Shown piece by piece: positions 12,439 through 56,508 of a stretch of 64,000 nt of DNA. Location: the NCBI GenBank assembly GCA_018396915.1, contig JAGTRD010000002.1, positions 48,706 to 112,705 on the forward strand, given 5' to 3'. Origin of the DNA: Candidatus Bathyarchaeota archaeon. Lineage in GTDB: Archaea > Thermoproteota > Bathyarchaeia > 40CM-2-53-6 > RBG-13-38-9. A program made the translations under genes and the position numbers. Positions within the stretch are counted from its first letter, which is position 1, and each line of letters opens with the position of its first letter. Under the pieces are notes generated by a model. It was not told the origin of the DNA. It did no database searches and worked only from the letters and a program-made list of their open reading frames with translations.

Positions 12439-13329
12439 CTATTTCTTTGATGTTTTAATTACGTAGTCGATTATTTTCGAGGCGATGTTGACACCTGTAG
12501 CTGTTGAGGCCCCTCTGAACTCTATTGTTGAGTTAACTTCATGTACAACCGGTCCATTCGGACTCTCCATGGCGTCAACAGCCAAGACACCTCCCCCCAC
12601 CGCCCTAGCTGCCCTCAACACTATATCCTCAAGTTGGCTGGATGTTGGGCAAGGTATGGTCGTAGCGCCCAAGGCCACGTTTGTTCTCCAAGCCCCTGCC
12701 GGAGCACTGCGATAAACTGATACTGCAACCTCATCACCTACGACAATAGTCCTTATATCTCTAGGCGGCCTTTCCACCATCTCTTGTATGTAATGGATTT
12801 GTAAAAGTGCATTATTCATCTGTTCTCTATGTTCAAGTATGGCCTCAGCTGTAGCCCGGTCTCTAACAGGTGAGACCAGCCTACCCCAACTCCCGACGAC
12901 TGGTTTTACTACTGCAGGATAGCCTATTTTCTCGAGTGCTTCTAATGCAGCTTCAGATGTGAAGGTTACATATGTCTTGGGCGTTGGGACACCTGCATTT
13001 TCTAATGCTAGAGAGGTGAAGAGCTTGTTTCCGCAGATTAGGGATGTGTTGAAGGAATTCACGACTGGGAGACCTTTCCTCTCCAAAACTGCAGAGATGT
13101 GAAGTCCCCTGAAGTAGCTTATGCATCTTTGAAGTATTATGTCTCCGTATGTTTCTGAATCATACTTACCACTGATATTTAGGCATATATTCTTTCCATC
13201 TATTAGATTCGTTGATATTCTCTTTCTTCTTGCAGCTTTGATCAGAGCTTTCTCTTCCCATCTCGTACGGTCATATATGATCGATAGTTTCTTTGGCAAC
13301 GATAGTCTATCACTCTCCCCAGTCTTCAC
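12439..13329 (-). CDS. lysX: LysX/ArgX family ATP-grasp ligase (RimK-like; LysW--aminoadipate/glutamate ligase), paralog 1
   Basis: 296 aa, similar to Thermus LysX (IYDRxRxEE.., GSWGRLV, YIQE...PRDIR). The annotated ATG overlaps lysW by 20 nt; the true start may be the downstream TTG at about 13287. Confidence 0.85.
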   Translation of the reverse strand: MKTGESDRLSLPKKLSIIYDRTRWEEKALIKAARRKRISTNLIDGKNICLNISGKYDSETYGDIILQRCISYFRGLHISAVLERKGLPVVNSFNTSLICGNKLFTSLALENAGVPTPKTYVTFTSEAALEALEKIGYPAVVKPVVGSWGRLVSPVRDRATAEAILEHREQMNNALLQIHYIQEMVERPPRDIRTIVVGDEVAVSVYRSAPAGAWRTNVALGATTIPCPTSSQLEDIVLRAARAVGGGVLAVDAMESPNGPVVHEVNSTIEFRGASTATGVNIASKIIDYVIKTSKK

Positions 13330-14285: not shown

Positions 14286-15143
14286 TTGAGTAAGACTATT
14301 GGGATGATCTACGACCAGATCAGGCCTGAAGAAAGATTATTAATAGACTCGGCCAGAAGGAAATCCCTGAGGCTCAACCTCCACGATGCGGAACGAATAA
14401 ATCTCGACCTTCTAGATCATGGAAAAGAAGAGCCCTTCGAAGATGTTATTCTACAAAGGTGCATAAGCTACTTTCGCAGTCTACATCTGACAGCATCACT
14501 AGAAAAAAGGGGGATTACTGTAATAAACTCTTCAAGGATAGCTTCAATCTGCGGCAACAAGCTATTGACCACACTTGAACTTGCGGAGGCAAAGATTCCT
14601 ATACCACGGGCAAGATTGGCGTTCAGCGTAGAATCAGCGTTGGATGCTCTATCAAAGCTAGGGTACCCAGCGGTACTAAAACCGATCATTGGAAGTTGGG
14701 GGAGACTCGTCGCCCCCCTAAAGGATGTTGAGTCAGCGAAAGCCATATTCGAGGATAGGGAACACATGTTTCCACTATACCAAGTCTACTACATTCAAGA
14801 GATGATTCAAAGACCACCTAGAGACATAAGATGCTTCATCATAGGAGATGCTGTAGTGGCGGCAATATATCGTTACGCACCTAAGGACGATTGGCGTACC
14901 AACACCGCGAGGGGTGGACATGTTGAACCTTGCAAGGTTACTCAGGAAATTGAGGAGCTTGCCCTGAAGACTGTTAAGGCCCTCGGTGAAGGCGTATATG
15001 GTGTCGACATGATGGAGAGTGATAGAGGCCTACTCATAAACGAGGTGAACTTCACAACAGAGTTTAGAAATAGCGTACCAGCCACTGGTGTAGATATCCC
15101 CGGAAAGATCCTTGATTTCGCTGCTAGCAAGGTGAGAAAGTGA
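14286..15143 (+). CDS. LysX/ArgX family ATP-grasp ligase, paralog 2
   Basis: 285 aa, about 50% identical to paralog 1; TTG at 14286 or ATG at 14304. Confidence 0.85.
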   Translation: MSKTIGMIYDQIRPEERLLIDSARRKSLRLNLHDAERINLDLLDHGKEEPFEDVILQRCISYFRSLHLTASLEKRGITVINSSRIASICGNKLLTTLELAEAKIPIPRARLAFSVESALDALSKLGYPAVLKPIIGSWGRLVAPLKDVESAKAIFEDREHMFPLYQVYYIQEMIQRPPRDIRCFIIGDAVVAAIYRYAPKDDWRTNTARGGHVEPCKVTQEIEELALKTVKALGEGVYGVDMMESDRGLLINEVNFTTEFRNSVPATGVDIPGKILDFAASKVRK

Positions 15144-22276: not shown

Positions 22277-22380
22277 ATCTTTAGATGGGTAGGACAACCT
22301 TTAACCAACTAATCTACGAATCAACCTAAGATTTAAAGAGTGTGTCGATATCGCCTTAATAGGAGATGCTGACCTTGCCA

Positions 22381-24189
22381 ATGCGTCAACCAATCGTCGT
22401 GGTCTTAGGCCATACGTCGTAGAGTTAAAATAAATTCACGACGGGCAAAGTAGACCACGGCAAAACAACACTACTTGATAAGATTCGAGGAACAACCGTT
22501 GCAAAGAGAGAACCTGGCCAAATAACCCAGTGGATAGGGGCAAGCTTACTCCCTTCAGAAATAATCATGAAAAACTATGGAGAGATCCTTGAAAGATTCA
22601 AAGTTCAAATAAAGATTCCTGGATTACTATTCATAGACACGCCTGGACATGAGAGTTTTTCGAATCTCCGTCGTCGCGGAGGCTCCGCTGCAGACATAGC
22701 GATATTGGTTGTAGACATTATGCAAGGAGTTGAACGCCAGACCGAGGAGTCTATCGAGATACTCAAATCTAGAAGGACACCATTTGTCGTGGCAGCTAAT
22801 AAAGTTGACTTGATTCCGGGGTGGAGGAGCGTAGGTTCAAAATCGATCACACAATCAGTCATATCTCAACCCACTGAAGTTCAAAGGGAGATGGATACTA
22901 AAATTTACACTATAATGGGTTCACTATCAAAACTTGGATTAAACTCTGACAGGTTTGACAGAATCAAAGATTTTACGAAGACCATTGCAATAATACCTAC
23001 AAGCGCAAAAACAGGAGAAGGTATTCCTGAGCTTCTAACGATCCTAGTTGGACTCACACAATCATTCATGAGAAAAGAACTGTTGACGAGTAGTGGACCC
23101 GCGAGAGGAACGATTCTAGAGGTTGAGGAGGAAGTTGGTTTAGGAGTTACCGTAAACGCAATTATCTATGATGGAAAATTAAATATTGGGGATAGAATAG
23201 TTCTCGGAGGTAAAGGTGGGCCGATACTCACCACGATCAGGACAATATTAGTTCCAAAACCATTAGATGAGATAAGGGATCCAAGAGATAAGTTTTCAAC
23301 TGTTCAGAGTGTGGGGGCAGCTTCTGGAATAAAGATCGCCGCACCAAACCTAGAGAATGCCCTCGCCGGTTCATCTCTATACGCGATTCCCGATAAGGAA
23401 AGCCCTGAAACCTACGTAAATATGATCAAAGAAGAGTTTGAGAGGCTGATAATACATACTGATAAGGATGGAGTAATCCTCAAGACCGATACTCTGGGGG
23501 CATTAGAAGCTATAACCGAGTCGCTAAGAAAGGCTGGCACACCTATAAGGATAGCTGACGTTGGGGACATCTCAAAAAGAGAAGTCATAGAGGCAGAAGT
23601 AGTCAAAGGAAAGAACCGGTTACTTGGCATAGTTTTGGGATTTAACGTAAAGACATTACCAGATGCTGAGGAGGAGGCTAGAAAGAGAGGTGTCCCAATA
23701 ATTATAGCGGATATAATATATGATTTATTAGATAAATATTCGAAGTGGCTAGAAGCCGAGAGATATGCTAATTTAAAGGCAGAATTGGAAAGCCATATCA
23801 GACCTGGAAAAATAAGGGTTCTTCCAGGACTAATATTCAGGAGAAGCAAACCCGCAATCTTTGGTGTAGAAGTCTTGGCTGGTAGAATTGGGCAGAAATA
23901 TCCGTTGATAAATGGTGATGGAAAGAGGATAGGAGAGATTATGCGAATCCAAGATAGAGGTAGAGATGTTGGCGAGGCCATTTCAGGAACCCAAGTAGCA
24001 GTCTCTGTGGATAAAGCTGTAATTCATCGAAACGTATTCGAAGGCGATATATTATATGTAGCCGTTCCAGAAAGGTCAGCGAAGGAACTTTTAACCAGAT
24101 TAAGAGATCACATTAGCCCTGAAGAGGTGGAAGTACTCAGGGAGCTAACCGAAATAATGAGGAGAGAGAATCCGTTCTGGAACATTTAG
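22381..24189 (+). CDS. infB: Translation initiation factor aIF5B (IF-2); ORF interrupted by a 36-nt insert. Proposed structure join(22381..22413,22450..24189), 590 aa
   Basis: Exon 1 MRQPIVVVLGH (22381-22413) and, in the same frame after a 36-nt stop-containing insert, VDHGKTTLLDKIRGTTVAKREPGQITQWIG...IDTPGHE... Together they reconstitute the canonical aIF5B N-terminus and P-loop. The ORF track only reports an internal ATG at 22567. Confidence 0.85.
22414..22449 (+). other. Candidate bulge-helix-bulge-type pre-mRNA intron in infB (36 nt, in frame, contains TAG and TAA)
   Basis: Insert acgtcgtagagttaaaataaattcacgacgggcaaa splits GH|VDHGKT. Internal 6-bp stem CGTCGT(22415-20)/ACGACG(22438-43) with a 17-nt loop. 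Exon GCC (22409-11) pairs with intron GGC (22444-46). The 5' junction lies after the 2nd nt of a 3-nt bulge (at|a). Exon-exon helix GTGGTC(22399-404)/GACCAC(22453-58) flanks the structure. Confidence 0.5.
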
Positions 24190-34994: not shown

Positions 34995-35837
34995 GTGTTT
35001 ATGAAAGTCTCTTCCATCGTCAAAATGTTCAGGCCTATCAACTGCCTAATGATGGGGGCAGCGGTTGTCATCGGAGAGATCATAGCACTTGGCGGCCTTC
35101 CTGAGTTTTATGAAGCCTTTCTAGGAGCTTCGACAGCAATATTTCTTATGGCAGGTACTATGGCTATAAACGATTATTATGACTTGGAGATAGATAGAAT
35201 AAATCGTCCGGAAAAGCCTCTGCCTTCAGGAGTTATCAAGCCTCCTCACGCAATCATTTTGGGGTTCATTGCATGTGGCTTAGGTTTGGTTGCAGCAGCT
35301 TCACTTAATGCTAGCAGCCTCTTAATTGCGTTACTTGCACTATCCCTGATGTTATACTATAATACTCGAGGTAAGAGAACAGGCCTGCTGGGGAACGTTA
35401 TCGTCAGTATATGTATAGGCCTTCCGTTCATATATGGCGGATCAGCTGTTGGAAAGGTCACATTCACTTTACTACTATTCTCATTGATCTCGTTTACGGC
35501 AAATCTGGGCAGGGAGGTCACAAAGGGAATAGTCGATGTAGAGGGAGATCGTGTGGGTGGGGTAAAGACTGTAGCTGTGCAGTATGGCCCAAAGTTTGCC
35601 TCGAAAATTGCATCCACGTTCTACTTAACAGCAGTTATTTTAAGCTTTGTGCCTCTATTTTTTGGATTGGTCGGAAGAAGATACATTCCCCTAGTGCTGG
35701 TATCAGACATAGGATTCATAGTCTCAACGTTTTCATTGCTCCGTAGATATTCTCGTGAAGACGCTGAAAGGATTAAAAATATGGTTCTCATATGGATGTC
35801 TCTGGGCCTCCTAGCTTTTCTCGCTGGAAGTTTGTAA
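34995..35837 (+). CDS. UbiA-family prenyltransferase, probable digeranylgeranylglyceryl phosphate synthase
   Basis: 280 aa, NDYYDLEIDRINRPEKPLPSG Asp-rich motif; divergent from the GGGPS gene. Confidence 0.8.
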   Translation: MFMKVSSIVKMFRPINCLMMGAAVVIGEIIALGGLPEFYEAFLGASTAIFLMAGTMAINDYYDLEIDRINRPEKPLPSGVIKPPHAIILGFIACGLGLVAAASLNASSLLIALLALSLMLYYNTRGKRTGLLGNVIVSICIGLPFIYGGSAVGKVTFTLLLFSLISFTANLGREVTKGIVDVEGDRVGGVKTVAVQYGPKFASKIASTFYLTAVILSFVPLFFGLVGRRYIPLVLVSDIGFIVSTFSLLRRYSREDAERIKNMVLIWMSLGLLAFLAGSL

Positions 35838-45065: not shown

Positions 45066-45138
45066 ACCACCAACATACAACTGAAAACGGAGTAGAAGAC
45101 GTATTTGCATTAGCTAAATTTTAAACTAAAGTGTTGGC

Positions 45139-46116
45139 CTATCGCCCCTTCAATAATAATTGGGGTGATGCTTCAATATGATTTCTTGAATATCTTTTAA
45201 ATTTTACATCTAGCGTAGTTACTATTAGCAAGTATATAATGATCCATATGGTGAAAAGAACCTCGCCTATTGATTCATGGAACATTCTCAGATTAACGTC
45301 TATGTATGCTCCATAGTATATTATTAGAAAGATTCTAATTATGTTAACGAAGAACGTACCGATAGCCCCAAAACATGCGTAAACTAATTTTTTAAAAGTA
45401 GATGTCTGGAGTTTTAACATAAGTATGATAATTACTAGGAAGTAGATTACCATGCTCAATACTCCAGCACATTGCCAGTAAATCTCTATGAGGAGAAAGC
45501 CCTTGTTCCCCCAGACCGCTAAAGTTTCACCTCCTAAATAATCGATCCTCACACCTACACTCCTCAGTAGGAAGACCGTAATTGCCAATATTGGCTTCAT
45601 CATAAATTGAAGAGACTCAGCAGAACCGTACGGAAATGTGGCATCCAACATCAGAATTAGAGCCATTCCTGAGAGGAAAACTATAGGTGTAGGAAAATAC
45701 TTTAAATTCTTAAAGCCAAAAATAGTCGTGGCCAGCACTAAGACATGAGCGGCATAAACCAAGTAGTCTAGAACTCTGGTCCAACTGAGAATTTGAGGTT
45801 TTGTTATATACCCTAATTTGGAACCTAAATGAGCTATCAGACTCTCTTGGCCAAAGGCGTATACGGCACAAAAATAACTTGAGAACACAACCGTTGCAAC
45901 TATAATGATAAATATTTTCGTGATTGTAAACTCCGGCCTAACATTCCTCCTTATATCAAACCATTCCATCGTTAAGAAGATGAAGGCGAAAAGTAAGCCA
46001 GCCCCCGCCCCCTCATTCCATCCAAGTATGAAGTGGTTTGGATCAATGAATAACAATGTCGCTATTGGTGCAACAAATGCAAGCAGGAAAATCTCCTTGC
46101 ATTTCATATTCAACAA
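45139..46116 (-). CDS. Polytopic membrane protein, exosortase/archaeosortase-like
   Basis: 325 aa, at least 7 predicted TM segments, conserved-looking C-A-G (EIYWQCAG) and N..R (FFVNIIRIF) motifs reminiscent of sortase-like transpeptidases; family call tentative. Confidence 0.4.
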   Translation of the reverse strand: MLNMKCKEIFLLAFVAPIATLLFIDPNHFILGWNEGAGAGLLFAFIFLTMEWFDIRRNVRPEFTITKIFIIIVATVVFSSYFCAVYAFGQESLIAHLGSKLGYITKPQILSWTRVLDYLVYAAHVLVLATTIFGFKNLKYFPTPIVFLSGMALILMLDATFPYGSAESLQFMMKPILAITVFLLRSVGVRIDYLGGETLAVWGNKGFLLIEIYWQCAGVLSMVIYFLVIIILMLKLQTSTFKKLVYACFGAIGTFFVNIIRIFLIIYYGAYIDVNLRMFHESIGEVLFTIWIIIYLLIVTTLDVKFKRYSRNHIEASPQLLLKGR

Positions 46117-52792: not shown

Positions 52793-53893
52793 TCAGTCTG
52801 GTCTTTCGAAAGTCTTTTCCAACTCGATGAGAAGTTCCCTCTGCCTCTTCGTAAGTCTTGTAGGAACAGTAACGTTTACTCTGACATATTCATCCCCTCT
52901 CCCATACTCATTGAATTTAGGCATGCCTTTACCTGCGATCTTGAATATTGTTCCCGACTGTGTTCCTGGGGGGATTCGGAGCTCTATCTTTCCGTTTAGG
53001 GCAGGTGCTGAAATCTTCCCGCCAAGGGCTGCTTGTGTGTAGGTTATCGGAACCTCACAGTAGAGGTCAGCTCCTCTTCTCTCGAAGATTGGATGTGGCC
53101 TAATATGGACTGTTACATAGAGGTCCCCTGGAGGGCTTCCTCTTGGACCCGCATCACCCTCTCCCCTAAGCCTCAAGGTGGCGCCGTCTTCTACTCCTGG
53201 AGGGATCCTGATGCTCAACCGACGGTCACGCTTAACATTTCCAGTCCCACCGCACGTGTTACATGGGGTTTCAACAATCTGGCCTTTTCCCCTGCACCTG
53301 TCACAGGTCGTTATCTGTGTGAACGTGAAGAAACCTGAGGCTGCTGATTGTTGCCTCCTTATCTCTCCTGCCCCTCTACATGTAGGACAGGTCTTTAGGC
53401 TTGTCCCAGGTTTGGCCCCACTACCGCCACACGTTGCGCAATCCTCAACTCTGGACATAGATATCTCCCTCTCAAGACCGGTCGCAGCTTCCTCCAAACC
53501 AATCTCTAAGTCATACTGAAGATCGTACCCCCTTTGAGGTATTCTCCAGCTTCTCCCCCCGAAGAAGTGGTCGAATATGTCGAAGCCGAATCTAAATCCT
53601 AAGTCTCTAAAAATCTCTTCGAAGTCTACGCCTCTGAATATGTCTTCAGGCCTGTATCTGTCACCTATCCCTGCACGACCATACATATCATATGTTCTTC
53701 TTTTCTCATCATCTGATAGTACGGCATATGCTTCAGATATTTCTTTGAACTTCTCTTCAGCGTCTGGTGACTTGTTCCTGTCAGGGTGATATTTGAGAGC
53801 GAGCTTTCGGTAAGCATTCTTTATCTCCTCTTTGGTAGCGTCCCTTGAGACGCCAAGTATTTCATAGTAGTCCTTCTCGGCCAAGATGGCCAC
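52793..53893 (-). CDS. dnaJ: Chaperone DnaJ
   Basis: 366 aa, J domain HPD (KYHPDRN), four CxxCxGxG repeats. Confidence 0.95.
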
Positions 53894-53916
53894 CGGTGGA
53901 TAGTAGTCGCAGTATT

Positions 53917-55806
53917 CTACGGCTTCCCACTCTCATCTACGACCTTATAGTCCGCATCAACCACTTTCCCTTTTCTCTCACCTGATTCACTCTTAGACTC
54001 ACTCGTCGACTGACCTTGGGTTTGAGTTGCCTGTTGGTAAACTGATGTCCCAACTTCTTGCAAGACTCTGGATAGATCTTCGATCCTCGATTTGATGGCG
54101 GCCACATCTTTTCCAGTCAATGCTGTCCTCAAGTCGGCAGACGCCTTCTCTAGCTTCTCCCTCTGCTCTTTACTGACCTTATCTCCAAGATCCCTCAGAG
54201 TCTTCTCCACCGTATATAGTAAAGAGTCGGCCTGATTTCTAGTTTCAGCCTCCTCTCTCTTCAAGCGGTCCTGTTCAGCGAACTTCTCAGCCTCTTTGAT
54301 CATCCTCTCCTTCTCTTCCTCTGAGAGTTTGGTTGTTGCCGTTATAGTTATCTTCTGCTGGTTCCCAGTTGCAAGGTCCTTCGCTGAAACGTTGAGTATT
54401 CCATCTGCATTTATGTCAAAGGTCACCTCTATCTGTGGGACACCCCTAGGCGCTGGAGGGATCCCTGTTAGGGTGAATCTGCCCAAAGAGACATTATCAG
54501 CTGCCATCGCCCTTTCACCCTGCAAGACATGTATAGTAACGCTTGTTTGGAAGTCTGCTGCGGTGGTGAATATCTGGCTCTTCCTTGTTGGAATAGTTGT
54601 GTTCCTCTCAATTATCTTTGTAAAGACTCCACCTAAGGTTTCAACTCCTAGTGAGAGTGGTGTTACATCTAGAAGGAGTAACTCCTGAACTTCTCCAGCT
54701 ATGACTCCCGCTTGTATGGCGGCACCCATGGCGACGCATTCCATAGGGTCTATCCCTCTCTCAGCAGGCTTCCCCATATAATCCTCAACAAACTTCCTGA
54801 CTATGGGCATCCTCGTAGGGCCGCCAACCAGAATTATCTTGTCTATATCTTGAGGAGTCATCTTCGCGTCAGCAAGAGCCTGGTTTATAGGGCCTTTACA
54901 TCGTTCAATGATCGGCATAACCAGCTCCTCAAGTTTTGCCCTAGTCAATGAAATGTTAAGGTGTTTTGGACCCGAAGAGTCAGCGGCTATAAATGGAAGG
55001 TTTATTTCGGTTGTGAGTGTTGTTGAAAGCTCTATCTTAGCCTTCTCAGCCGCCTCCCTCAACCTCTGCACAGCGACCTTATCATTAGTGAGGTCTATTC
55101 CGGTAGTTTTTTTGAATTCATTGATTAAGTAATTGACTATCGCATTATCCATGTCTGTTCCACCAAGCTGTGTGTCTCCGCTTGTGGACTTGACTTCAAA
55201 TACAGGCGGCTCAGAAGGTCCTGGTCTGCCTATCTCCATTAAAGTCACGTCAAGAGTCCCTCCTCCTAGATCGAAGACCATTATCTTCAATTCTTTCTCA
55301 GCCTTGTCGAGGCCGTAGGCTAAAGAGGCTGCTGTCGGCTCATTTATTATTCTGACTACTTCTAGACCTGCTATCGTGCCAGCATCCTTCGTCGCTTGCC
55401 TCTGATTATCATTAAAGTAGGCTGGAACAGTAATGACGGCTTTGTCTACTCTCGCACCGAGGAACGCCTCGGCATCCCTCTTAATCTTCTGCAGTATGAA
55501 TGCAGAGATCTGTTGTGGAGTATACTCTTTACCAAATATCTGAACCTTATAGTCTGTGCCCATCTTTCTCTTTATGGCCATCACTGTGCCTTCGGGATTA
55601 GTAATAGCTTGTCTTCTAGCCGGTTCACCGACTAAGAGTTGCCCATCCTTTGTGAAGGCAACAACTGATGGGAATGCTTTCCCACCTACAGTTGTGCCTT
55701 CAGCGCTTGGGATCATTACTGGTCGACCGCCCTGCATGACCGCAGCTGCGGAGTTGCTGGTACCTAGGTCTATACCTATTATCTTCGATGCTTGGGAGCT
55801 GCTCAT
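53917..55806 (-). CDS. dnaK: Chaperone DnaK (Hsp70)
   Basis: 629 aa, [18 protein letters not shown]. Confidence 0.95.
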
Positions 55807-55953
55807 TGGAACACCACCGTGAGGTAGCCAACGAATAGGTATGAAACTTAGCTATAAAGAGAAGTTGGCTTAAAGAAAAATATTTTGGAGATTTTTATTG
55901 GCGTCGCCCGTGAATTAGGGCTTCATGCAAGTAGTTCGATCTAGACTTATCTT

Positions 55954-56508
55954 TTAACTAAATTTCTTCGAGACTACGACGACGCTGGGTCTAAGAAGTT
56001 TACCTTTGAACATGTAACCTGCCCTGATCTCATTTACAATTATACCTTCAGGAACATCTTCCTTCAAAACTTGGTCGGCGGCTTCATGGATTTCAGGATT
56101 GAAAGGTTTTCCGACGGCCTCTATCCTAATCAATCCTTCACCTTCCAGAATATTCATGATTTTTTTCATGATAAGCTCAAGACCGGACCTGAGATCCTCA
56201 CAATCATGAGTTCCATGAGATAACTTGAGAGCCATCTCCATATCATCCAGTATGGTCAGGAGATTTGAAATCAAACGTTCATTAGCCCTCTTGATGATCT
56301 CATCTGTCTCCCTCCTTACTCTCTTCTGGATATTTTCTATTTCCGCTTGCATATACTTGAGTTGGTTCAAGTATCTATCAGACTTGGCCTTCTCACTTGC
56401 CAGAGCCATATTCAATCGGTCAACCTCTCTCTCGAGATCCCTATCTTCTCCCCCTTCAGTTCTAGTACCGACATCTTCACATGAATCTGTTTTAGATGTG
56501 TTCATCAT
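55954..56508 (-). CDS. grpE: Nucleotide exchange factor GrpE
   Basis: 184 aa coiled-coil N-terminus plus GrpE C-terminus; upstream of dnaK-dnaJ. Confidence 0.9.
   Translation of the reverse strand: MMNTSKTDSCEDVGTRTEGGEDRDLEREVDRLNMALASEKAKSDRYLNQLKYMQAEIENIQKRVRRETDEIIKRANERLISNLLTILDDMEMALKLSHGTHDCEDLRSGLELIMKKIMNILEGEGLIRIEAVGKPFNPEIHEAADQVLKEDVPEGIIVNEIRAGYMFKGKLLRPSVVVVSKKFS

Follow-up and report, generated by a model that had tools for sequence, protein, structure and literature searches.

A probable bulge-helix-bulge intron within the P-loop of the aIF5B pre-mRNA in Bathyarchaeota

The DNA analysed here, referred to below as the window, is a stretch of 64,000 nucleotides (nt) from contig JAGTRD010000002.1 of a Candidatus Bathyarchaeota archaeon, and it contains on its plus strand the gene for aIF5B, the archaeal IF-2/eIF5B-type GTPase, whose P-loop (G1 motif) is interrupted by 36 nt that carry stop codons. 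Translated from ATG 22381, exon 1 reads MRQPIVVVLGH and ends with nucleotide 22413. The insert that follows (22414-22449) reads ACG TCG TAG AGT TAA … in the frame of exon 1, which translates as T S stop S stop N K F T T G K, and from 22450 the frame (VDHGKTTLLDKIRG…) is open until the stop at 24189. Among the open reading frames (ORFs) listed for the window, no single one contains the P-loop plus the protein body. The structure, the position and the coding consequence of the insert are established from sequence and comparison, and they make it very probable that 22414-22449 constitutes a bulge-helix-bulge (BHB) intron of the aIF5B pre-mRNA, spliced by the endonuclease EndA and the ligase RtcB in a step that would be obligatory. 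The gene is divided as follows.

22375 to 22413, plus strand: exon 1, from the probable TTG start (alternative ATG 22381) to the His codon, M-P-M-R-Q-P-I-V-V-V-L-G-H; it encodes strand beta-1 and the G1 motif as far as its second residue
22414 to 22449, plus strand: putative intron of 36 nt, with TAG at 22420-22422 and TAA at 22426-22428 in the exon 1 frame; supported by the homologous inserts, 34-42 nt long, that 16 distinct sequences have at this codon boundary
22450 to 24189, plus strand: exon 2, from VDHGKTTLLDKIRG… to the stop, 579 codons and stop, the remainder of aIF5B

Excision of exactly 22414-22449 yields a protein of 590 amino acids (aa), counted from ATG 22381, and restores GHVDHGKT, a sequence that about 100 intronless homologues share without variation. 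It is the only excision that joins GH to VDHGKT, it requires cuts after AU of an AUA and after AA of an AAG, and the same applies to 16 of 16 homologues. The spliced protein reaches 765 bits against NCBIfam TIGR00491 (aIF-2/aIF5B; cut-off 555) and matches positions 2-589 of 591; it is a member of the aIF5B/archaeal IF-2 family (TIGR00491, NF003078) over its full length, including the N-terminal G1 motif. The deposited annotation, MBS7650086.1 (568 aa, starting MRGTTVAK; window 22486-24189), covers positions 24-589 of TIGR00491 only and is without the G1 motif. An earlier note on this DNA had described a stop-bearing 36-nt insert in the P-loop, an intact N-terminus and G1 motif in a 590-aa product once the insert is removed, and the want of any upstream start for the G domain unless the RNA is spliced; all of this was borne out by reading and translating the locus, by the TIGR00491 alignment and by the fact that no ATG, GTG or TTG stands after the in-frame stop and ahead of exon 2.

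The earlier note had also called for a search of other genomes of the lineage, and the insert was indeed found there, at the same codon boundary and in more than 20 contigs (below, loci are cited by L numbers and proteins by P numbers). Reference genomes were scanned with the spliced protein as query; a second Bathyarchaeota metagenome-assembled genome, JAGTQO01 (L001/L002), carries the same 36-nt insert, with three loop positions different. A protein search gave about 8,000 aIF5B homologues, and among the 120 best of them 17 have an N-terminus cut at or past the P-loop (VTGHVDHGKT, MAGQVDHGKT, MAGHVDHGKT, MGYVDHGKT, MLFIDTPGH…), the remainder reading …RQPIV[VA]VLGHVDHGKT. The DNA of seven truncated homologues (L003-L006, L067-L070) showed an insert exactly at the His-Val boundary in every one. 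Metagenome DNA was scanned with the pattern GGCCAYA-N(25-55)-GTAGAYCAYGGNAARAC, which returned 60 loci, 12 of them aIF5B with an insert and 48 unrelated GTPase genes and chance matches. Together, the insert-bearing loci (L002-L006, L011, L019, L023, L033, L035, L040, L044, L046, L053, L063, L064, L067-L070) provide 16 distinct intron sequences on more than 20 independent contigs from NCBI, JGI, ENA and Logan, that is, from different samples and assemblers; these relatives are Bathyarchaeota with 62-94 % protein identity. Their introns measure 34, 35, 36, 37, 38 or 42 nt, and since the majority of these lengths are not multiples of three and would shift the frame, an in-frame reading of the insert is excluded. 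In-frame read-through and stop-codon recoding were rejected on the same ground, given the inserts of 34, 35, 37 and 38 nt.

Gene callers (PGAP and those used for metagenomes) have assigned at least five different wrong N-termini to intron-bearing aIF5B genes, placed either within the intron or 22-70 residues downstream; strand beta-1 is missing from every one of them, and the P-loop from some. The affected database proteins are MBS7650086.1, P0002-P0011, P0026, P0049, P0050, P0073 and P0077.

The 81 nt around the insert (22390-22470) fold with a minimum free energy (MFE) of -33.2 kcal/mol, compared with -12.8 ± 2.3 in 200 shuffles (z = -8.7; no shuffle as good), and the fold is retained in a 201-nt context in both the MFE and the centroid structures. 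Its parts are listed here from 5' to 3'.

22396 to 22407, plus strand: 5' strand of the outer helix h (exon 1), partner 22451-22461; 22404 is bulged in the comparative register
22408 to 22411, plus strand: 5' strand GGCC of the central helix H (exon 1), partner 22444-22447 (GGCA)
22412 to 22414, plus strand: 5' bulge AUA, with the predicted EndA cut after AU, between 22413 and 22414
22415 to 22443, plus strand: inner hairpin h', pairing 22415-22420 with 22438-22443, extension 22422-22426 with 22433-22437, loop 22427-22432
22448 to 22450, plus strand: 3' bulge AAG, with the predicted EndA cut after AA, between 22449 and 22450

A BHB motif is defined by two 3-nt bulges on opposite strands with a 4-bp helix between them (PMC6379350), and the hBHBh' form by closing helices h and h' of at least two Watson-Crick pairs each (PMC7714728). 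Both descriptions fit the insert region, which has two opposite 3-nt bulges around a helix of four positions and closing helices of 10-11 pairs (h) and of 6 pairs with a 5-pair extension (h'), arranged on each strand in the 5' to 3' order helix, central-helix strand, bulge, helix. In the MFE structure of the window the outer helix pairs 22396-22405 with 22452-22461, and the central helix consists of 3 pairs and the mismatch G22408·A22447. The 5' bulge, AUA or ACA, occupies the same three alignment columns in 16 of 16 sequences and is unpaired in the MFE structure of all 14 that were folded, and the equivalent 3' bulge (AUG) has exactly three unpaired nucleotides in the MFE structures of L003, L005, L006, L033 and L035, whose central helix is fully paired. 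The two junctions that the protein requires, between 22413 and 22414 and between 22449 and 22450, both fall after the second nucleotide of a bulge, so the splice sites are symmetric and excision between them would restore a functional RNA. Cleavage after the second bulge nucleotide is the established rule for EndA on BHB motifs. The stems that the earlier note had named, in the insert and between the exons, were all present in the computed fold, and its placing of the 5' junction after the second nucleotide of a 3-nt bulge agrees with every sequence folded; its assignment of the 3' junction to a relaxed loop is not really upheld by the relatives, which show a 3-nt bulge at the place of 22448-22450 and a central helix of four positions. 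On comparative grounds the motif comes closer to a canonical hBHBh', with a single mismatch, than to a relaxed form.

For the comparative analysis, the BHB structure was imposed on an alignment of the 16 sequences (A2), and slid controls were obtained by moving the 3' partners by 1-3 columns. Standard pairs were found in 95.5 % of the 336 pair cells versus 30-47 % in the slid controls, and in 500 column shuffles neither the pairing nor the covariation score of the real alignment was attained once. Pairing amounted to 98.9 % of cells in h, 92 % in the central helix and 91.7 % in h'. The 14 individually folded sequences share one architecture (14/14), the exact 3-4-3 arrangement being the MFE structure in the five relatives with the fully paired central helix, and L069 and L070 fit the BHB structure in the alignment. 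Five of the six inner-helix pairs have changed on both sides (CGUCGU/ACGACG, CGCCA/UGGCG, CAUCC…/…GGGUG and others); the exon-exon and exon-intron pairs vary only between G-C and G-U, and in most relatives the central helix is fully paired (GGCC/GGCC, GGCC/GGUC, GGCC/GGCU, GGUC/GGCC). Neither the sequence nor the length of the intron loop is conserved, a conserved structure thus standing with a variable intron body, and the intron appears to be kept only as structure.

The exon strands of the motif are constrained in a different manner. In 16 of 16 intron-bearing genes the codons read GTC GT[GA] GTN YTA GG[CT] CAY/GTA GAY CAY GG[CT] (the slash marks the junction), which are the pairing bases, whereas in the intronless relatives L071-L073 the same residues are encoded by varying synonymous codons: GTC GTT GTT CTT GGG CAT/GTC GAC CAT GGA, GTA GTA GTG CTT GGG CAT/GTG GAT CAT GGA, and GTC GTC GTA CTT GGT CAC/GTG GAT CAT GGG. 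The helix between the VVV and DHG codons was absent from the folds of four intronless relatives (L071-L074). Because these synonymous sites are fixed where the intron is present and vary where it is absent, selection for RNA structure in the intron-bearing genes is indicated. At the same time, all substitutions in the exon 1 codons RQPIVVVLGH are synonymous across the 16 sequences (CAA/CAG, CCA/CCG/CCT/CCC, ATC/ATT/ATA and so on). Judged by this pattern, exon 1 is under purifying, protein-level selection, which means that it is translated, and its translation is sensible only if it is joined to exon 2.

In this structure the exon 1 codons for VVVL pair with the exon 2 codons for VDHG as the outer helix, the Gly-His codons (GGCC) pair with the 3' end of the intron as the 4-position central helix, and the body of the intron forms the inner hairpin, with two 3-nt bulges left on opposite strands. 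According to the mechanism that we propose, EndA, the tRNA/rRNA splicing endonuclease, would cut after the second nucleotide of each bulge (22413/22414 and 22449/22450), and RtcB RNA ligase would join the exons and probably circularise the 36-nt intron. The mature mRNA, …VVVLGH-VDHGKT…, would encode the complete P-loop, with …PIVVVLGHVDHGK as the predicted junction-spanning peptide of the spliced product. Unspliced RNA would give either a peptide of 13-15 residues, M(PM)RQPIVVVLGHTS followed by a stop, or a protein devoid of strand beta-1 and P-loop, and, since neither would be functional, splicing would be obligatory for function. The site may owe its susceptibility to an intron to the natural complementarity between GUN-GUN-GUN (VVV) and GAY-CAY-GGN (DHG). 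The central proposal of the earlier note, a BHB-type mRNA intron in the P-loop whose splicing is needed for a functional protein, is supported by every computational test that was made.

The history of the intron was followed in a neighbour-joining tree of 119 aIF5B proteins, in which 15 intron-type sequences form one clade with zero intronless members, while P0049 (L006) and P0077 (L005) stand apart from this main clade and nearest to intronless sequences. At least two lineages of Bathyarchaeota have inherited the intron, and the separate position of P0049 and P0077 is accounted for either by one old gain followed by losses or by two gains. A search of 1.84 billion cluster representatives gave no indication that the intron is common beyond these lineages: an intron at this site would show as an alignment of the first few residues to the first residue of exon 2, and none of the best 150 matches has this pattern.

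In many archaeal homologues of aIF5B that are 700-1150 aa long, the alignment begins only at residue 17 of the spliced protein (…HGK-TTLL), as seen in the match to NCBIfam NF011418 and in representatives P0245-P0254 and others. An intein of about 440 residues that sits in this P-loop, five codons downstream of the intron, would fit these sequences, and one motif would therefore host two kinds of intervening element. Such inteins (NF011418; a 1049-aa IF-2) resemble the intron in lying within the G1 motif and differ from it in being in-frame, about 440 residues long, self-splicing and removed at the protein level, whereas the intron described here contains stop codons and must be removed as RNA.

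Other explanations of the insert have to be weighed against splicing. Translation might start in or after the insert (at MAGHVDHGKT…, or at the MRGTTVAK… of MBS7650086.1), in which case RQPIVVVLGH would be a remnant or would belong to a small upstream ORF, and the RNA would not be spliced; in some relatives the 3' part of the insert does supply an in-frame start followed by G-[HQY] (VTGHVDHGKT, MAGHVDHGKT, MAGQVDHGKT, MGYVDHGKT). However, in L002 and L019, as in the window, the in-frame stop is followed by no ATG, GTG or TTG before exon 2 begins, and in L040, L046 and L063 exon 2 is immediately preceded, in frame, by TAG or TAA. VDHGKT would have K, Q, Y or H ahead of it instead of the invariant H, the exclusively synonymous change in exon 1 is unexpected for a relic, and the product would be without strand beta-1, which is part of the P-loop GTPase fold; an internal start is therefore very unlikely. 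Ribosomal bypassing of the phage T4 gene 60 type, with take-off at the Gly/His codon, about 36 nt skipped and landing at the 3' end of the insert, would account for a short untranslated gap in an ORF with a stable hairpin after the take-off region and a stop codon near the start of the gap, shortly past take-off. GGC is found both ahead of the insert and near its 3' end, and in four relatives the last intron triplet is CAT, the His take-off codon. Elsewhere, however, this triplet is AAA, CAA, CAG, TAT, TAG or TAA, so that no landing codon is conserved and the aIF5B inserts lack the match of take-off and landing codons that characterises programmed bypass. Landing on the 3' GGC/GGT would meet TAG or TAA directly in L040, L046 and L063 and would elsewhere replace the invariant His by K, Q or Y, and what is conserved, the bulge size and the 4-position helix, belongs to a BHB and is not required by hopping. 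We consider bypassing most improbable.

The insert could also be an artefact of assembly or sequencing, or the mark of decay left by an inactivating insertion in what is now a pseudogene, as the window belongs to a metagenome-assembled genome and only the truncated protein is found in public annotation. Nevertheless, it occurs as 16 sequences on more than 20 contigs that stem from independent samples and assemblers, which excludes an assembly error; all full-length cases have an intact exon 2 of 579 codons at 62-94 % identity, and exon 1 has changed only synonymously. Moreover, truly frameshifted aIF5B genes from long-read assemblies (L074, L075) show neither an insert at the site nor the structure, and an origin by error or decay is hardly credible. 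Over the whole window Rfam gave no match at the gathering threshold, nor did it at E ≤ 1 over 22300-22520; a self-splicing group I or group II intron, or another curated RNA family, was rejected in view of this result and of the size of the element, which is 36 nt and not hundreds.

Loci L074 (3380-3420) and L075 (3001-4784), on contig_27510 and contig_103815, have aIF5B split into 2-3 ORFs by frameshifts, and in L075 the neighbouring Lhr helicase is broken too. The breaks are likely indel errors and not introns, both genes being intronless at the P-loop.

Several observations weigh against BHB splicing of this mRNA. The central helix contains a mismatch, G·A in the window and C·A in L011 and L070, and a strict alpha4-type endonuclease might refuse such a helix; read the other way, the mismatches suggest an endonuclease of broad specificity. 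EndA, RtcB and intron-containing tRNAs were not found in the 64-kb window or in the fetched loci: Pfam searches of 50 window ORFs gave no EndA, RtcB or Cbf5, and tRNA scans of the window and the loci found nothing. On the supporting side, a 2026 study reports both EndA and RtcB from all the near-complete archaeal genomes that it covered, Bathyarchaeia among them, and BHB-dependent circular 23S rRNA from each (PMC12918454). Against splicing, again, 5.8 billion predicted proteins included no sequence of the spliced type with 80 % or more identity to the intron clade, and a protein search with the N-terminal 136 residues gave no already-spliced sequence within that clade; two candidates, P0127 and P0130, were rejected as intronless genes broken by frameshifts in long-read assemblies. 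Finally, the 12 loci from the pattern scan had been preselected for GGCCAYA and GTAGAY, and base conservation in them is partly an effect of ascertainment. The nine loci obtained by protein homology (L002-L006, L067-L070), which are free of this bias, show the same bases except L069, an informative exception in which GGC is replaced by GGU and the pair becomes U·G.

The known element closest to the aIF5B intron is the one in the cbf5 pre-mRNA of Crenarchaeota (Desulfurococcales, Sulfolobales), which measures 16-44 bp, is BHB-like and depends on EndA (Yokobori 2009, PMC2738675). Both are short BHB-type introns (34-42 nt in aIF5B) of a protein-coding gene that are recognised by EndA through their structure, as predicted for aIF5B; both interrupt a catalytic motif (the codon of a catalytic residue in cbf5, the P-loop in aIF5B), both have a patchy distribution of gain and loss, and both are routinely mis-annotated. 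Watanabe 2002 and Yoshinari 2006 are reportedly further sources on the cbf5 intron. The differences are that cbf5 is a pseudouridine synthase gene of Crenarchaeota and the present host is aIF5B of Bathyarchaeota, which places the element outside the cbf5 intron lineage, that the two have no sequence relationship, and that the cbf5 motif is termed BHB-like whereas that of aIF5B is a near-canonical hBHBh'. Splicing of cbf5 has been shown experimentally, and that of aIF5B is inferred from sequence. As far as the sequences tell, the aIF5B intron works as the cbf5 intron does and is not homologous to it.

With the BHB introns and processing stems of archaeal tRNA and rRNA the aIF5B element shares the two 3-nt bulges, the 4-bp helix, the cuts after the second bulge nucleotide, the presumed use of EndA and RtcB and the expected circular intron products. 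The host here is an mRNA, unlike in those cases, with neither a tRNA body to help recognition nor an Rfam family, and the motif's exon strands serve as codons as well, which writes the structure into synonymous sites. The BHB intron in the 5' untranslated region (UTR) of Haloferax volcanii HVO_1309 provides a precedent for an mRNA as substrate of the splicing endonuclease (PMC7714728), as predicted for aIF5B; it lies in an untranslated leader and leaves the reading frame uninterrupted, whereas in aIF5B splicing would create the ORF. A more distant parallel is offered by the unconventional splicing of eukaryotic HAC1/XBP1 mRNA, in which stress-regulated IRE1 makes the cuts and RtcB or Trl1 ligates the exons. 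It resembles the splicing proposed here in being carried out by protein enzymes independently of the spliceosome, in the short, structure-defined intron, in the change of coding and, in metazoa, in the RtcB family of the ligase, and differs from it in the endonuclease, IRE1.

Regarding the start of translation, the frame given by the earlier note stands, but its start codon, ATG 22381, is probably not the one used, and conservation in the relatives makes TTG 22375 (MPMRQP…) more likely. All relatives have a TTG two codons before the Arg codon (CGT), replaced by ATG in L067, whereas the codon that matches ATG 22381 is ATA, ATT or CTA in 10 of the 16 sequences; the start was placed at TTG 22375 because TTG or ATG is universal at that codon and ATG 22381 is not kept. 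Initiation at TTG 22375 gives a product of 592 aa, the modal length of the intronless homologues. Another in-frame ATG is found at 22366. Two candidate signals lie further upstream.

22330 to 22340, plus strand: A/T-rich box GATTTAAAGAG, putative TATA-like promoter element of a transcript of aIF5B's own
22362 to 22365, plus strand: GGAG, Shine-Dalgarno-like; a GGAG or GAGG is found 10-20 nt ahead of the conserved TTG in relatives, and its role here is inferred

A comparable box (ATACTTAAG or TTTAAAGAG) is present 45-55 nt 5' of the Arg codon in all 16 intron-bearing loci, and the box at 22330-22340 is a probable archaeal TATA-like promoter element. From this arrangement it seems that, within the L7Ae-S28e-L24e-NDK-aIF5B-S6e-S24e cluster, aIF5B is served by a promoter and a Shine-Dalgarno site of its own.

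In the whole window, a covariance model of the element matched only once, at 22393-22464. A permissive BHB scan gave thousands of chance matches and is uninformative alone; a scan with an ORF-joining filter and an MFE check left the aIF5B site plus two weak matches. The latter, 35507-35642 on the plus strand and 45087-45142 on the minus strand, were rejected as BHB introns and attributed to chance, as each would add only 17-18 codons to a complete gene. Their host genes encode a UbiA-family prenyltransferase and an exosortase-like protein, respectively. The segment 42102-43214, between enolase/S2 and L18e/RpoD on the minus strand, appears as a gap filled in the greedy map by two implausible plus-strand ORFs; from the usual archaeal gene order, small minus-strand genes for L13, S9, RpoN and RpoK are presumably to be expected there. 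A GrpE-DnaK-DnaJ chaperone cluster occupies 52793-56508 (minus strand), and two LysX/RimK-type ATP-grasp genes (12439-13329, minus strand; 14286-15143, plus strand) lie around a gene for an AsnC-type regulator, in a group that adjoins arginine and lysine biosynthesis genes.

In the searchable literature to 2026, subscription-only papers being outside its scope, no prior report of an aIF5B/infB intron was found. Papers of 2009, 2020 and 2025 (PMC2738675 and PMC7714728 among them) give cbf5 and one Haloferax 5'UTR as the only mRNA substrates, and the expectation of the earlier note that an intron in the aIF5B P-loop would be new is in agreement with this, HVO_1309 being the only addition to cbf5. 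For more than 20 years cbf5 has been cited as the sole archaeal protein-coding sequence with a BHB intron; on the present comparison, aIF5B would be the second one known to need BHB splicing, missed by annotation.

That splicing of aIF5B is a regulated step, in which EndA and RtcB activity gates the factor for subunit joining as an archaeal analogue of HAC1/XBP1, and not a passive relic is an unlikely extension, in line with the possible regulatory checkpoint of the earlier note; if it were true, initiation capacity would be coupled to RNA-processing capacity, that is, to the machinery of tRNA and rRNA maturation. In a broader and likewise unlikely version of this reading, BHB introns at catalytic motifs of essential genes would be widespread in uncultivated archaea and hidden systematically by gene callers. 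The finding exposes a systematic annotation error that affects marker-gene alignments and completeness estimates, and it defines a precise junction, 22413 joined to 22450, that can be sought in the sediment and hot-spring metatranscriptomes already available. The motif's exon strands, doubly constrained by codons and RNA structure, would be a clean natural substrate for the study of EndA specificity. Lastly, with an intron in a universal essential GTPase of a very abundant lineage, mRNA splicing by the tRNA endonuclease would be more than a one-gene curiosity.

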